From Candidatus Thorarchaeota archaeon (lineage in GTDB: Archaea > Asgardarchaeota > Thorarchaeia > Thorarchaeales > Thorarchaeaceae), in the NCBI GenBank assembly GCA_048882485.1, contig JBHLRP010000045.1, positions 1 to 27,377 on the forward strand: 27,377 nt of DNA, given 5' to 3'. Every line of letters starts with the position of its first letter. Position 1 is the stretch's first letter. Both the position numbers and the translations under genes were made by a program. This document shows positions 4,107 through 6,865 of the stretch, piece after piece. The notes below the pieces were generated by a model, which saw nothing but the letters and a program-made list of their open reading frames with translations, was not told the DNA's origin and made no database searches.

Positions 4107-4622
4107 ATGACAACCAGAATTGTGCTTGCAATGCATGGAATGCCTCCGAAGGATTTCCCAGAAGAGGAGGTTGCTGAGCTAATCAGGCTTCACCGCATAA
4201 TTGAGAAAGCAGGAGATCATGCTCAAGCAGAGATGCGGGTCCGGTTCGCTCAACTGGATAGCAGGGTTAGAAACTGGGAGCGTACTTCCGAGAACGACCC
4301 CTTCTGGGCATCATCTCTGAAGCTGGCTGAAGAGCTTCAAGAAGCAACAGGCTTTGAAGTCGTTGTTGGGTTTAACGAATTCTGTGCACCCAATCTTGAC
4401 GAAGCTATAGACACAGCTGCTCGTTCAAATGCAGAAAGGGTGGTCATTGTTACGCCTATGATGACTCCGGGCGGTGAGCATTCTGAAGAGGACATTCCTG
4501 AGGCAATATTGGCAGCCAAAAGTCGATTTGATGGAGTTGAATTCATCTACGCCTGGCCTTTTCCTAGGTCTGATGTAGTGTCTTTCTTGACAAGCCAAAT
4601 CCAAGAATTCAGTGATGCATAG
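4107..4622 (+). CDS. CbiX/SirB-family tetrapyrrole chelatase (short CbiX type, with a helical insertion)
   Basis: IVLAMHG (first His), GFNEFCAPNL, and PMMTPGGEHSEEDIP (second His), matching class II chelatase motifs. Confidence 0.8.
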   Translation: MTTRIVLAMHGMPPKDFPEEEVAELIRLHRIIEKAGDHAQAEMRVRFAQLDSRVRNWERTSENDPFWASSLKLAEELQEATGFEVVVGFNEFCAPNLDEAIDTAARSNAERVVIVTPMMTPGGEHSEEDIPEAILAAKSRFDGVEFIYAWPFPRSDVVSFLTSQIQEFSDA

Positions 4623-4628
4623 TAACAT

Positions 4629-4677
4629 ATTGTGACTCCATTCTGTGACCTTCAATTGTGGCTCCGCTATATATACT
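4629..4677 (+). promoter_or_regulatory. Three 13-bp-period direct repeats followed by a TATA box
   Basis: TGTG(A/G)C at 4631, 4644 and 4657, then TATATATAC at about 4668-4676. Confidence 0.35.
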
Positions 4678-4707
4678 GATTCTGAGTGCTAATTCTTGTG
4701 AAATATC

Positions 4708-4812
4708 ATGGCTCTACCAACTAACTCTCGAAAGTCACGCGATTTGAAGAAGAAGCGAACTCTGCCTCCTTCAACAAGGGCAATAGTCCAAGCTTACATC
4801 TATAACAGGTAA
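4708..4812 (+). CDS. Putative small basic peptide (34 aa)
   Basis: MALPTNSRKSRDLKKKRTLPPSTRAIVQAYIYNR*. The ATG lies about 30 nt downstream of a TATA box, consistent with a near-leaderless archaeal transcript. Confidence 0.35.
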   Translation: MALPTNSRKSRDLKKKRTLPPSTRAIVQAYIYNR

Positions 4813-4892
4813 GCACCTGCATAGGTGGAATGGTTCGTGCGCTTCAAATATCCAGACGGTTTTGCACATAAATTCAACCGAAAAAAACGAAT

Positions 4893-4917
4893 GGTTTGGT
4901 TGCCAAACCTTTATATG
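4893..4917 (+). promoter_or_regulatory. TATA box with an adjacent 7-bp inverted repeat (promoter of the candidate ncRNA)
   Basis: GGTTTGG-ttg-CCAAACC (4893-4909) directly followed by TTTATATG (4910-4917). Confidence 0.55.
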
Positions 4918-4940
4918 GATTTGGCCCGCACATTCAACCA

Positions 4941-5294
4941 CACAGCATCGGCAAGCAACCAGTTCGTGGAGTATAGTGATTGGTCACTGAGTGCCCGCAA
5001 CTGCGGTCACTTTCGCCCATTAACGGCTTATACTGTGACCAGAAGTATACTACGTGAGACAATTCCAATGGCTAACGATTCAGACTGTGTTGTGGCCAGT
5101 TCGGCTCAAGATGTTGAAGTGCCCTCCCAGGCGGCTGTTAATGGGCAATCCTTGCTCAAAGGAGCATTTACGGTCAAGAAGGGACCGAGTGGTCCCAAGC
5201 CAGTTGTGGTAGATATACCATACTTAGCAAACTCCTATCTCCGTTGTAGCGCTCGCGGAGCCAAATCTCGGGAGCGCTACAGCTTACATCTGTG
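4941..5294 (+). ncRNA. Candidate large structured non-coding RNA (~355 nt), family unrecognised
   Basis: Nested long-range helices, several hairpins and 5'/3' end pairing. Non-canonical pairs are G-U on the + strand. It begins about 25 nt after a TATA box. Confidence 0.6.
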
Positions 5295-5380
5295 AGGTTA
5301 AGAGCCATGATTTCGGAAGGGCCACATTCTGATTCTTCTTTCTCTATTCACGTTGTTCATAATCGACTGAGGTTCAAGAA

Positions 5381-6865
5381 ATGAGCAGATTAGCAAATGC
5401 AATAGGGCTCCCAGATGCTAATGAAAAGGTTCTTCGATTAGCAAGGATCTTGATTTTCCTAGGCCCATTGGCTACATTCACTTTCACCATGTCGACAACC
5501 TTCTATCTGATCTTTGTTGCTGAAGCACTGGGTGGCGGCGATTATATCGCAGGCCTTCCTTTCGTAGCAACTCTTGTAGTCATCCAGATGGCCATTCAAT
5601 TACTCCTGGACTATCCTACTGGTGCAATTGGAGACTGGATAGGACAGCGCTACATAGTATCATCAGCCACCACGTGCTACGCTATTGCGTTTTGGCTAGT
5701 TTCAATGGTCATACCAACAACTCCATTCTGGTTCCTAGTAATTATCTATGTAATTCAGGGCCTTGGCAACTCTCAAATGAGTGGCGCGCTTAACACGTGG
5801 TTCGACAATAACTATAGAATCGCCATGCCAGGTGACTCGGACAGAAAGCAGTATGGCATGTTTTGGGGAAGAGTCGGAGGAATGATGCAAGTCGTATCAA
5901 CTGCAGCACTCATCCCTGGTAGCATCTTGGCTGCAGTCTTTGGTCGACCATGGGTATTCCAGCTGCAGGCAGTATTGGCTCTAGTTCTCACTATTTTCGG
6001 CTTCAGATTCATCACGGACTTTCCTGAGGTCCAAGCCGCACGACAACAGCGACCCACCATGAGTGGGTACACCAAGATTCTGAAGGATGGAGTGGGTTAT
6101 CTATGGAGTGAGCCCTTCGTCAAATACATCGTAATCGGGTCAATGCTTGCCACCAGCTCGATAATGGTGTGGGGCAATCTCATCCTGTTCCCCATGTACT
6201 TCCTCTACCTTATCACTGACGTAGCTGTTGCATCGTTTCGGACTGTCCTATTCATTCCTGGGATTGTTGCACAGGAAAGATCTGGAGTTTGGTCCAGGCG
6301 ATTTGAACCCAAAAAGTGGATTCCAAGATTCCGACTCATCCAGACATGCGGGCTCGTGTTCTTCTTGGTCGTTTCATTCATAATATTCTTATTTCCGCCT
6401 GCAACAAACGGTGGTCCGATGTTCAGCGTCGTTCTGCCTATTGCCAATGTGGAACTAATGCAGATACCAGTGGGGAACATCTTGCCGGTCGTGTTGCTCT
6501 TCTTTTCCTTCACTCTTACCGGCTTTTTTGGAGGATTTGCTGAGATTCTCACACAGAGGCAACTGCTTGATGCTATTCCAAATCGAATTAGGAACTCAAT
6601 GTATTCCCTCTCTCCCACCATCGCAACCATATTTGCGCTCCCACAGATTTGGTTCTTCGGATGGTCGATACCTACCATTGGATTCCCATTGACTCTAATG
6701 TTGTGTGGAATGGTGTCTCTCATCGGCGTGCTACTGATACGCAAAGGGCTTCACCAGCCAAAACCAGTTCTTGAAGAGGAGGCTTGGAGTAACAGCCAGC
6801 CAGAAGCCCAAGAAGTCATTGAAGAGATAGAAGAAGAGATTGCCCACGAAATGATTGAAGAGTAG
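5381..6865 (+). CDS. MFS transporter with an acidic C-terminal tail
   Basis: LDYPTGAIGDWIGQR (motif A variant), SGALNTWF, about 12 TM. Confidence 0.88.
   Translation: MSRLANAIGLPDANEKVLRLARILIFLGPLATFTFTMSTTFYLIFVAEALGGGDYIAGLPFVATLVVIQMAIQLLLDYPTGAIGDWIGQRYIVSSATTCYAIAFWLVSMVIPTTPFWFLVIIYVIQGLGNSQMSGALNTWFDNNYRIAMPGDSDRKQYGMFWGRVGGMMQVVSTAALIPGSILAAVFGRPWVFQLQAVLALVLTIFGFRFITDFPEVQAARQQRPTMSGYTKILKDGVGYLWSEPFVKYIVIGSMLATSSIMVWGNLILFPMYFLYLITDVAVASFRTVLFIPGIVAQERSGVWSRRFEPKKWIPRFRLIQTCGLVFFLVVSFIIFLFPPATNGGPMFSVVLPIANVELMQIPVGNILPVVLLFFSFTLTGFFGGFAEILTQRQLLDAIPNRIRNSMYSLSPTIATIFALPQIWFFGWSIPTIGFPLTLMLCGMVSLIGVLLIRKGLHQPKPVLEEEAWSNSQPEAQEVIEEIEEEIAHEMIEE

Follow-up and report, generated by a model that had tools for sequence, protein, structure and literature searches.

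Positions 4941-5384 of the window (the whole stretch of 27,377 nucleotides of DNA from Candidatus Thorarchaeota, an Asgard archaeon, that was analysed) are, in the reading that we moderately favor, the 5' leader of an MFS transporter mRNA: cis-acting, highly structured and translated, and not a separate gene. Positions 4941-5294 carry a conserved RNA structure on the + strand that belongs to no described family. This element is probably not a discrete RNA and most likely represents the translated front end of the transporter mRNA. Most likely the leader was built around a regulatory module that precedes transporter genes throughout the family; as judged from sequence comparison, its 5' third is this widespread module and not a unique RNA, and the element would be an expanded form of an older arrangement that most of the family retains. 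The points of this reading that rest on direct evidence are the conservation, the structure, the non-coding mode of evolution, the relay of open reading frames and the linkage to the MFS gene. The locus is a well-delimited, conserved and testable case: a leader of about 440 nt with a supported fold, stacked predicted promoters and a frame relay that ends on the transporter start.

The initial annotation had proposed, as its first choice, a discrete RNA of about 355 nt and, as its second, a large leader for the downstream MFS gene. The evidence favors the latter: the terminal helices meant to define the ends of a discrete RNA are not conserved, neither a terminator nor a separate promoter for the MFS gene was found, and a chain of open reading frames leads from 5068 to the MFS start. 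The structured RNA that it had described stands in part: the + strand fold (z = -3.9), the lack of an Rfam match and the inner helices hold, whereas the outer long-range helices fail.

Layout of the locus

A gap of 759 bp separates the CbiX chelatase gene (4107-4622) from the MFS gene (5381-6865). A TrmB-like protein is encoded nearby at 902-1687. The features discussed below are the following:

4668-4676, + strand: P1, a TATA-like box (TATATATAC) predicted from the sequence, 40 nt before the ATG at 4708 of sORF1
4708-4812, + strand: sORF1, 34 codons, ending in ..RAIVQAYIYNR and a stop; conserved peptide, member of the family-wide small-ORF arrays
4893-4917, + strand: P2, palindrome GGTTTGG-TTG-CCAAACC (4893-4909) fused to TTTATATG (4910-4917), located by pattern search
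4981-5071, + strand: TGGTCA-box module, detected with covariance model R2 (68/86 family genomes)
5015-5146, + strand: long-range 13-bp helix 5015-27/5134-46, extended by 5120-23/5130-33 and enclosing small hairpins; 182/182 cells paired in 14 sequences
5028-5033, + strand: putative P3-like TATA core TTATAC, within the module and with TGGTCA boxes on either side
5068-5295, + strand: leader ORF, 75 codons, stop TGA 5293-95, start and length kept; probably translated, peptide without constraint
5181-5196, + strand: hairpin GGGACC/GGTCCC; 84/84 cells paired in 14 sequences
5243-5283, + strand: 18-bp terminal hairpin 5243-60/5266-83; 98% of cells paired in 14 sequences
5307-5384, + strand: uORF, 25 codons, whose stop TGA (5382-84) overlaps the MFS ATG (5381-83) in the ATGA at 5381-5384; kept in homologues
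5381-6865, + strand: MFS transporter gene (Pfam MFS_1, 3e-16), 3' of the element in every homologue and likely the regulated gene

Conservation of the RNA fold

On the + strand, positions 4941-5294 fold at -129.5 kcal/mol, compared with -107.6 ± 5.6 kcal/mol for dinucleotide shuffles (z = -3.89, none of 100 shuffles being as stable), so the stretch is more stable than the shuffled controls with which the initial annotation had suggested comparing it; the - strand reaches z = -2.52. The element has 13 homologues, 8 of which were found through the translated ORF, and the same MFS gene comes next downstream in all 13; with the window they make up a set of 14 sequences. By DNA search, the full-length form is present in 3 of 16 genomes of the genus.

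In the consensus structure as revised on these 14 sequences, 98.0% of 1204 cells are paired, versus 32-46% when the structure is slid, and 7 of the 86 pairs are doubly changed, versus 2.4 ± 1.3 in shuffles (0/500); the structure was predicted from the same alignment on which pairing was counted, so these figures lean in its favor. The alignment contains close sequences (82% mean column identity) from few clades. About 40 further pair types occur, most of them G-U intermediates, which the - strand would show as A-C, and many unpaired stretches within the structure are invariant. The covariation that the earlier description called for is present among the homologues as compensatory and wobble changes that keep the pairs, in a comparison of few clades and with a structure drawn from the same alignment. 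It had also noted G-U pairs on the + strand, and the further pair changes are mostly of this kind.

The helices first proposed were scored individually on six homologues. The long-range helix 5015-27/5134-46 is paired in all 78 cells, passing from A-U through G-U to G-C, and G-U/A-U changes also occur among the homologues. The hairpin placed at 5245-81 is likewise supported (106/108 cells) and extends to 5243-60/5266-83; in the 14 sequences it has four doubly changed pairs and nine with wobble-preserving single changes, and its sequence is kept although homologues read the same stretch in different frames. Hairpin 5181-86/5191-96 pairs in 36/36 cells, five of its six pairs varying on one side via G-U, and hairpin 5069-73/5094-98 in 26/30. 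Of hairpin 5153-57/5162-66, only the inner 3 bp are supported. The candidate AAGC/GCTT pairing 4953-56/5282-85 is found in 23/24 cells with one doubly changed pair, and the extended hairpin also claims 5282-83. The other proposed helices did not survive the comparison: the terminal helix 4941-45/5290-94 is paired in 13/30 cells, helix 4968-76/5235-42 in 34/48 and hairpin 5029-34/5044-49 in 16/36, the 3' strand of helix 4987-93/5221-27 is deleted in half of the homologues, and helix 4995-5003/5201-09 is beaten by the local hairpin 4990-98/5003-11 (51/54 cells, two compensatory pairs).

Comparison with known RNA families

None of the 4227 models of Rfam 15, which include riboswitches and C/D and H/ACA sRNAs, matches any part of the window at the gathering threshold, in agreement with the novelty claimed at the outset. 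At E<=10, positions 4600-5400 give three matches, all at chance level (11-16 bits), and Rfam is equally silent on the surroundings of the promoter element's second copy and on four loci in other genomes that share this element. The signatures of SRP RNA and RNase P RNA had been reported missing by eye, and neither model matches the window at the gathering threshold or at E<=10. These two identities are rejected because both RNAs sit elsewhere in the genome: RNase P RNA (RF00373, a model with the P4 helix and CR-I/CR-V) on contig C110 with 162.7 bits, and archaeal SRP RNA (RF01857, with helix 8 and Alu-domain motifs) on contig C58, where the best genomic match is full length with 90.3 bits. C/D-box and K-turn readings of the module were dismissed by eye, no conserved C box (RUGAUGA) or D box pairing being seen. 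The CbiX neighbor suggested a cobalamin riboswitch, which was rejected, with no B12 box visible by eye and no Rfam match.

The element contains invariant junction sequences and competing pairings. Rfam identifies no known aptamer or ligand for it, and the genomic context hints at none beyond the CbiX neighbor. A full-text search of the literature found no published report on this element. As far as we are aware, very few cis-regulatory RNAs have been described from archaea and none from Asgard archaea.

Mode of evolution of the open reading frames

ORF 4825-5295 (156 aa) is labelled 'hypothetical protein' in public annotations. The homologue comparison indicates that the element evolves as non-coding sequence, with selection acting on nucleotides and not on codons. 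After 5068, 'dN/dS' is 0.7-1.3 and the 51 codons have 23, 24 and 21 variable columns at codon positions 1, 2 and 3. Over the 50 codons after 5068, inter-clade identity is 0.80-0.84 for nucleotides and 0.58-0.70 for amino acids. The adjacent MFS gene, compared between clades, has a third-position identity of 0.43, a dS too saturated to be computed and a dN of 0.085. Two controls behave as coding sequences: dN/dS of the MFS gene is 0.03-0.13 within clades, and sORF3 of other genera has codon-position entropies of 0.58/0.585/0.92. In other genera, sORFs that are truly coding begin at this conserved start (5068 in the window).

Indels of 4 nt shift the frame at both ends of the ORF while the sequence stays conserved, and the C-terminal 25 residues are read in different frames between clades from DNA that is nearly invariant. 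The frame is open in 14/14 copies. For the eight homologues (of 13) detected by way of the translated ORF, an open frame was a condition of discovery, and in simulations that place the differences at random the frame stays open in 21-60% of trials per DNA-found copy; openness alone is therefore only mild evidence. Between 4966 and 5067 there is a weak excess of variable columns at position 3 (10/16/20; not significant by a chi-square estimate, p about 0.2), with dN/dS of 0.3-0.56 between clades. Neither Pfam nor NCBIfam holds a family for sORF1, the 75-aa frame, the 156-aa frame or four small ORFs of other genera. Codon-type conservation of ORF 4825-5295, which the initial annotation had named as grounds for giving up the RNA interpretation, was not found, and its proposal thus passed this test. 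The 'hypothetical protein' called here in public metagenomes is accordingly a warning for annotation, as the stretch appears to evolve as RNA and not as protein.

A relay of frames into the MFS gene

A succession of frames leading into the MFS gene is kept in the 14 sequences despite frame-changing indels of 4 nt and 2 nt. The leader ORF starts with ATG (TTG in three sequences) behind an SD-like sequence that is also conserved. In 13/14 sequences it is 74-79 codons long, always with a TGA stop just before the next start; in the remaining one it continues to a stop 10 nt short of the MFS ATG. The distance from this stop to the uORF start is at most 11 nt in homologues. The uORF has 19-25 codons in the homologues, uses the same conserved ATG (GTG in two) and ends between -4 and +22 nt from the MFS start; owing to the 2-nt indel, its reading frame differs among them. 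This is the layout of a translationally coupled leader, in which an upstream frame stops on the following start codon or only a few nt away from it and does so across homologues. The spacer of about 100 nt between the last hairpin and the MFS start is itself conserved and contains neither an oligo-T terminator nor a TATA box. Beyond the last hairpin the homologues keep no oligo-T terminator, and other clades lack the T-rich stretch that the window has there. Compensatory changes in support of a masking of the MFS ribosome site by pairing were not found.

The TGGTCA-box module and the promoter-like elements

Two covariance models were used, R1 (215 nt) and R2 (88 nt). The R2 module, which corresponds to the first ~90 nt of the element, is present in 2-4 copies in each of 68 of the 86 genomes of the family, some 170 copies in all. 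Its parts in the window are TGGTCAC (4981-87), the hairpin 4990-98/5003-11, a conserved spacer, GTGACCA (5035-41), an SD-like GTGAGA (5054-59) and the start codon 5068-70. In all it carries three TGGTCA boxes, which compete to pair with the single GTGACCA. In the family, the module sits in arrays of tandem ORFs of 30-45 codons that precede MFS genes. In the older arrangement, three to five small ORFs in tandem are followed by the MFS gene, with the module lying over the end of sORF 2 and the start of sORF 3. Of 10 loci sampled in other genera, 8 have an MFS gene downstream of the module. The MFS gene is the sole constant partner of the arrays, whose upstream neighbors vary (3-hydroxyacyl-CoA dehydrogenase, ATC hydrolase, unknown proteins).

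At the nucleotide level the module is more conserved than the flanking coding sORF. A conserved small-protein C-terminus (..SGH..GQ.VSE.AY.VTNL and a stop) was considered as the cause of this conservation and rejected: third positions are invariant where the neighboring sORF shows variation, and in other genera these nucleotides are read in a different frame. Where the first TGGTCAC and GTGACCA deviate from pairing in 73 copies of the module, 12 cases are G-U and 14 are A-C, with no G-U excess. Two column pairs of the module covary (0/5000 shuffles each), one, at the base of the outer helix, changing from C:G to G:C, and the other, 52-64, alternating between G:C, U:A and C:G; the central pairs of the module hairpin show 128 G-U versus 11 A-C, largely inherited. 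More distant copies in other Asgard families are intergenic, with a perfect palindrome GTGACCA-N6-TGGTCAC, a better TATA box at the position of P3 and a winged-helix-like gene just upstream. The 5' module may act as DNA (promoter and operator) rather than as RNA.

The promoter-like element announced about 25 nt upstream of the RNA, with its TATA box at 4910-4917, is present and conserved. The P2 palindrome is perfect in the window, and GGTTTGG-N3-CCAAACC with TTTATATG occurs in 13/14 homologous sequences, 114 or 118 nt before GTGACCAG; its sequence points to a transcription start near 4940. Only two P2-type sites exist in the genome, the other preceding a small-ORF array on contig C56. The P3-like TTATAC lies exactly 40 nt before the conserved start in 14/14 sequences, the same spacing as between P1 and sORF1. 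The sORF1 peptide is conserved upstream of the element in seven further homologues and has paralogues on contig C56, and related sORFs in other genera show codon-type variation. The repeat AGCTTACATCT occurs at 4791 and at 5281.

Alternative explanations

Several other scenarios may explain these observations. Control could act mainly on the DNA, through three stacked promoters and operators, the RNA folds being secondary: the TGGTCA boxes would be transcription-factor sites flanking the inner TATA core and GGTTTGG/CCAAACC the site of another factor. The fixed 40-nt spacing of TTATAC, the features of the distant Asgard copies, the lack of a G-U excess among the TGGTCAC/GTGACCA departures and the conservation of the module whatever frame reads it all agree with this explanation. 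Nevertheless, it leaves the 3' two thirds unexplained, where the 13-bp helix and the 18-bp hairpin change via G-U and compensatory pairs that are relevant only in RNA, and the covarying columns and G-U-rich central pairs of the module also speak against it. We consider such a mainly DNA-level control unlikely, but DNA-level and RNA-level layers may coexist. It is quite unlikely that P2 is the promoter of a free-standing, trans-acting structured RNA of ~355 nt whose 3' end follows the 18-bp hairpin. The upstream promoter-like element, the strong conserved structure with invariant unpaired stretches as in complex functional RNAs, the absence from Rfam of an RNA that is neither RNase P nor SRP RNA, and a stable 3' hairpin that could protect the end of a processed RNA would suit it. 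Yet its closing helices lack conservation, the hairpin is followed by no oligo-T tract, and the element is always directly 5' of the same MFS gene, across a conserved spacer whose uORF ends at the MFS start; moreover, its 5' third is a module found inside coding small-ORF operons of other genera, and its narrow spread within the genus fits a locus-specific leader better than a housekeeping RNA.

That ORF 4825-5295, or its 75-aa part from 5068, encodes a functional protein is improbable. Its frame is open throughout the set and predicted by gene callers, 156 open codons are unlikely by chance in a spacer of ~50% G+C, the start codon and SD-like sequence are conserved, and 4966-5067 shows the slight position-3 excess and lowered dN/dS given above. 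This excess is, however, not significant, and after 5068 the ratio is about 1 with a flat phase pattern, amino acids are less conserved than nucleotides, the C-terminus changes frame by clade, the upstream part holds a conserved promoter read in two frames, and no protein family is recognized. Finally, a chance structure in a fast-evolving spacer, or a decaying and functionless remnant of small ORFs, would be compatible with the narrow distribution of the full-length form and with a clear descent from small ORFs (the module, the 'AY'-type ends in alternative frames and the AGCTTACATCT repeat). This explanation is hardly credible given a conservation far above that of the neutral sites of the neighboring gene, the stability relative to shuffles and the persistence of pairing through substitutions.

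Proposed mechanism and related systems

In the leader interpretation, transcription would begin behind P2 (near 4940), with a second start probably behind the inner P3 (near 5055). The P2 transcript would open with the TGGTCA-box module, and the multi-helix fold would span the rest of the leader. Ribosomes would initiate at the conserved AUG at 5068, translate 75 codons across the folded 3' domain, terminate at the UGA at 5293, restart 11 nt further on at the AUG at 5307, terminate again at the UGA at 5382 and restart at the overlapping MFS AUG (5381). Transporter output would then depend on the number of ribosomes that enter and complete the relay, a number that could be set by the fold around the first start site or by a bound protein or small molecule. 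Within this interpretation we infer the transcription starts, read-through into the MFS gene, translation of the frames, their coupling and any sensing. More speculatively, the element, together with the family-wide TGGTCA-box and small-ORF arrays from which it would derive, may represent an undescribed type of archaeal gene control, in which a large RNA that senses a ligand, a protein or the ribosome gates ribosome entry into a relay of coupled uORFs ending on the MFS start, at 2-4 loci per genome; we regard this as possible but doubtful. If true, it would place multi-uORF translational control in the closest prokaryotic relatives of eukaryotes.

Termination and reinitiation at overlapping stop and start codons (ATGA) is the translational coupling of prokaryotic operons. 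The uORF and the MFS gene have this arrangement, kept in homologues, and the stop of the leader ORF, 11 nt ahead of the uORF start, falls within an SD-like UGAGG. Unlike in such operons, the upstream frames have no selected products here, at least two non-conserved frames extend across ~300 nt of conserved RNA structure, and the coupling is predicted. Control by leader peptides is known for bacterial MFS efflux genes: tetA(L) of Bacillus subtilis combines a leader ORF, stem-loops and reinitiation, and cmlA is subject to translation attenuation. The locus resembles them in having a short, presumably translated leader and RNA structure directly 5' of an MFS gene, whose output would depend on ribosome behavior; the likeness is one of arrangement. 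The element differs in being archaeal and much longer, at about 440 nt, with several serial frames, its own stacked promoters and no known inducer. Its position 5' of a transporter gene recalls riboswitches and other large leader RNAs, as do the many unpaired but invariant nucleotides of its multi-helix fold, the start region set within the structure and the alternative pairings (three TGGTCA boxes for one GTGACCA). It differs from riboswitches by matching none in Rfam and by an expression platform that would be the translated relay instead of a terminator or a masked SD. Archaeal RNase P and SRP RNAs (about 300-350 nt) are similar in size, in their stable nested helices and in the promoter directly upstream, but the element matches neither model and both are encoded elsewhere in the genome.

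GCN4, with its four uORFs, is the paradigm of eukaryotic multi-uORF translational control. The family-wide form similarly has three to five tandem small ORFs before the main ORF (two frames in the window), but the archaeal sORFs carry SD sequences, with a spacing suited to coupling and not to scanning, several of them encode conserved peptides, and no link to initiation-factor control is known. The family-wide result is possibly weightier than the window itself, with a module of ~88 nt under strong nucleotide-level constraint in 68/86 genomes. If the arrays control translation, they would show the use of multiple uORFs by archaea without scanning ribosomes; if the small-ORF peptides are functional, they would form a new family of Asgard micro-proteins tied to transport.

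Locus and homologues

The stretch at 4941-5294, which the initial annotation took for a discrete novel ncRNA or, alternatively, for a large leader of the downstream MFS gene, lies in a 759-bp gap flanked by genes for a CbiX-type chelatase and an MFS transporter. DNA searches recovered full-length copies in three of the 16 other genomes of the genus (94%, 79% and 78% identity), and two further copies were found on metagenome contigs. Searched as a protein, the open frame returned 16 'hypothetical proteins', the DNA of eight of which entered the comparison. The same MFS gene follows the element in every homologue; CbiX precedes it in the genome loci that retain CbiX and in three of the metagenome contigs with a readable upstream gene. 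Within the gap, sORF1 is followed by a palindrome fused to TTTATATG and then by the element. A pattern search found this putative promoter, the palindrome with its TATA box, at a fixed distance in 13 of the 14 copies.

Features of the locus (coordinates on the + strand of the window)
4107-4622: CbiX-type chelatase gene
4708-4812: sORF1, a small ORF of 34 codons inside the gap, with a TATA-like box (P1) 40 nt before its start
4893-4909: perfect palindrome GGTTTGG-TTG-CCAAACC, fused to the TATA box at 4910-4917 (together P2)
4984-5071: extent of the 88-nt model of the module, which consists of TGGTCAC, a hairpin formed by another two TGGTCA boxes, a spacer with conserved positions (..C.CA..A..GCATAT..) and GTGACCA, then an almost invariant ATG after about 25 nt that include a Shine-Dalgarno-like GTGA/GAGG
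5068: start of the leader frame (ATG in 11 copies, TTG in 3), 74-79 codons, end always TGA, at most 11 nt before the uORF start
5307: conserved ATG (GTG in two copies) of the uORF, 19-25 codons, stop between 4 nt inside the MFS start and 22 nt before it
5381-6865: MFS transporter gene, downstream of the element

Structure of the element

The proposed comparison with dinucleotide shuffles shows that the + strand of 4941-5294 is unusually stable (-129.5 kcal/mol vs -107.6 +/- 5.6; z = -3.89, 0/100 as stable), the - strand being weaker (z = -2.52). It corresponds to no known Rfam family: Rfam 15 gave no match in the window at the gathering score and only three chance-level matches at E<=10. RNase P RNA and SRP RNA, the two archaeal RNAs of comparable size and already judged absent here, are located elsewhere in the same genome, respectively on contig C110 (162.7 bits) and contig C58 (5972-6282, - strand, locus L011; 90.3 bits, a full-length match to the archaeal Rfam model). 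With a gathering score set at 96.5, the C58 gene would escape routine annotation.

The individual helices of the initial annotation fared unequally. On six homologues, the 13-bp helix 5015-27/5134-46 is paired in 78/78 cells, with an A-U to G-U to G-C series, and the hairpin at 5181-96 in 36/36. The terminal hairpin is also maintained (106/108 cells), but it has 18 bp (5243-60/5266-83) and not the 10 bp described. A possible AAGC/GCTT helix (4953-56/5282-85) is paired in 23/24 cells with one double change, and rivals the extended terminal hairpin for 5282-83. By contrast, the partners of the closing helix (4941-45/5290-94) and of two long-range helices (4968-76/5235-42 and 4987-93/5221-27) are deleted or altered without compensation. 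The hairpin at 5029-49 fails on the six homologues, on which 4995-5003/5201-09 also gives way to a local hairpin (4990-98/5003-11) that has two compensatory pairs.

The RNAalifold consensus of the 14 sequences comprises 86 pairs, and 98.0% of its cells are paired vs 32-46% with partners slid. The covariation sought among homologues is present, as seven pairs have double changes (2.4 +/- 1.3 in shuffles, 0/500) and the covariation score is 0.130 vs 0.110 (0/500), in sequences that are close, come from few clades and also served to derive the structure. Pair variation consists mostly of single transitions via G-U on the + strand, which fixes the strand. In the consensus, the AUG at 5068 has GCAAC directly on its 5' side, base-paired to GUUGU at 5089-93; the pyrimidine tract 5329-35 is predicted to pair weakly with the opening codons of the MFS gene, without compensatory support.

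A proposed leader running into the MFS gene

The reading as a discrete ncRNA is not supported: the closing helix fails, the homologues have no conserved oligo-T tract 3' of the terminal hairpin in the spacer to the MFS start (nor a TATA box), and a relay of reading frames runs into the MFS gene. The order of this relay (5068, 5307, 5381) is kept on the RNA among the 14 sequences. The uORF stop TGA (5382-84) and the MFS ATG (5381-83) overlap in the window, and in one metagenome copy the leader frame, 100 codons long, stops 10 nt short of the MFS ATG. The architecture outlasts 4-nt and 2-nt indels which alter the frames, so that the peptides differ, a pattern that would be expected if selection acted on the passage of ribosomes and not on the product. 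Such an arrangement is that of termination-reinitiation coupling, which may operate here. Since the relay ends at the MFS start, the spacer of about 100 nt is itself conserved and the MFS neighbour is constant, the leader alternative is supported and the initial observation is, overall, partly confirmed: the evidence supports a cis-acting structured, probably translated leader, a new family of that kind. Transcription would start near 4940 and near 5055, and translation at 5068, with reinitiation at 5307 and then at 5381; ribosome entry would be set by the fold around the first start, through the GCAAC/GUUGU pairing.

The main rival reading was a functional protein encoded by frame 4825-5295, since this frame is open in all copies. 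We regard its openness in the homologues as only mild evidence for selection; when the observed differences are placed at random, 21-60% of the trials for each sequence leave the frame intact, and eight copies were found via the open frame itself. Codon-type conservation, which the initial annotation had named as adverse to an RNA, is absent: after 5068, variable columns are flat across codon phases (23/24/21, of 51 each), and the Nei-Gojobori 'dN/dS' over 50 codons is 0.7-1.3. Between the same genomes, the adjacent MFS gene used as a control has a dN of 0.085, a third-position identity of 0.43 and a dS too saturated for computing, whereas the element keeps an identity of 0.80-0.84 over all positions, so that purifying selection acts on its nucleotides, not on codons. 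The frame is also shifted by 4-nt indels near 4939 and 5222, differs by clade in the promoter region and last 70 nt where the DNA is nearly invariant, and matches no family in Pfam or NCBIfam.

A family-wide module

Outside the genus, a 215-nt core model gave only weak matches, which have a sharply conserved 5' part in common. An 88-nt model of this module, which makes up the 5' third of the element, matches 68 of the 86 family genomes, 2-4 times each, and a small number of genomes from two further families in the phylum. In other genera, the module ATG (equivalent to 5068 in the window) starts ORFs of 31-38 codons with conserved ends (..AITHAYTYRR, ..ALAYAYLTVRR, ..SLFYDYHWRLDG); with a codon-position entropy of 0.58/0.585/0.92 in 13 loci, they are truly coding. 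The module has an entropy of 0.15/0.21/0.25 in the same loci. It covers the 3' end of the preceding small ORF (M..ERLI.W..DP..WS.SGH..GQ.VSE.AY.VTNL), and in other genera the same nucleotides are in another frame. This low entropy at all positions and the change of frame by genus show that the module is constrained as nucleic acid.

The arrays are made up of three to five tandem small ORFs, 10-15 nt apart, followed by an MFS gene in 8/10 sampled loci; their upstream neighbours vary. Since module and arrays are family-wide, the window's element appears as an expanded derivative, in which sORF1 was kept, the sORF2 start was apparently replaced by P2 and sORF3 seems to have grown to 75 structured, non-coding-like codons. 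This small-ORF, TGGTCA-box and MFS system of Asgard archaea matters more than the window itself.

The module could also act as DNA, that is, as a promoter and operator, a role that may coexist with an RNA layer. Its TTATAC core (P3, 5028-33), flanked by TGGTCA boxes, precedes the start by exactly 40 nt in 14/14 copies, a spacing identical to that of P1 and sORF1. Copies in other families are intergenic, adjoin a winged-helix-like gene and have the perfect palindrome GTGACCA-N6-TGGTCAC and better TATA boxes, and where the outer helix departs from pairing there is no G-U bias (12 G-U vs 14 A-C). Nevertheless, two column pairs covary (an outer-helix base, C:G to G:C, and 52-64, G:C/U:A/C:G; each 0/5000 shuffles), the central hairpin has 128 G-U vs 11 A-C pairs, mostly inherited, and, in the window's clade, 5134-46 pairs with the spacer in the well-supported 13-bp helix, possible only in P2 RNA. 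If P3 is active, its transcript would lack the 5' strand of this helix, so the two promoters would give differently folded leaders. The three TGGTCA boxes vying for one GTGACCA would suit a switch.

Other observations

Three distant intergenic module copies in another Asgard family (loci L106, L107 and L109) have a perfect 8-9 bp palindrome and lie directly 3' of a winged-helix-like gene ending in ..KKATYYK.. and directly 5' of a conserved gene for a 116-121-aa protein (MSDKD..EELREIL.AVQETIPQLI..), with neither a small ORF nor an MFS gene at these loci. The module may thus be a more widely used operator-promoter. A second copy in the window's genome (contig C1:179017-179101, - strand) directly precedes a 34-codon ORF (MAFTKYNRNETKKKRMTKAKLLSTKALARVYFVR), without a preceding small ORF; at this locus (L112, to about 1.5 kb past the module), no ORF of more than about 50 codons was seen in the first 900 nt of the - strand.

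In other genera of the family (loci L037-L100), 3-5 tandem ORFs of 30-45 codons precede MFS genes at 2-4 loci per genome. They combine variable N-termini with conserved C-terminal motifs (AY.Y.RR, SLFYDYHWRL[DE]G and NAYQ.KWRL.K) and match no Pfam family; they may represent leader peptides, arrest peptides or a new family of micro-proteins.

A direct repeat, AGCTTACATCT, occurs at the end of sORF1 (4791-4801) and of the structured element (5281-5291), each time followed by a Shine-Dalgarno-like sequence and ATG, which fits an origin of the element's 3' end in the terminal part of an ancestral small ORF. Directly after sORF1, an AGGTGG Shine-Dalgarno precedes a tiny frame (MVRALQISRRFCT, 4830-4871). 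This frame begins with residues similar to the sORF2 start of other genera (MVYAE.., MVFSE..), and it is probably a truncated sORF2 remnant cut off by the P2 insertion.

The only other genomic copy of GGTTTGG-N3-CCAAACC plus TATA, on contig C56 (L002:1100-1560, - strand), precedes four tandem small ORFs (MTHDETEHECSGHGPDTHESLYYDYCAWR, ..PIGFAYTYRR, MALTERITKKKRPQKKISTRAIAHAYLYR and MAHKNGTKR..), and the two sites look like a two-site regulon of some factor, tied to small-ORF arrays. A TrmB-family winged-helix regulator, encoded 3 kb upstream of the structured element (902-1687, - strand), is a candidate for binding to one of the two palindromic elements.
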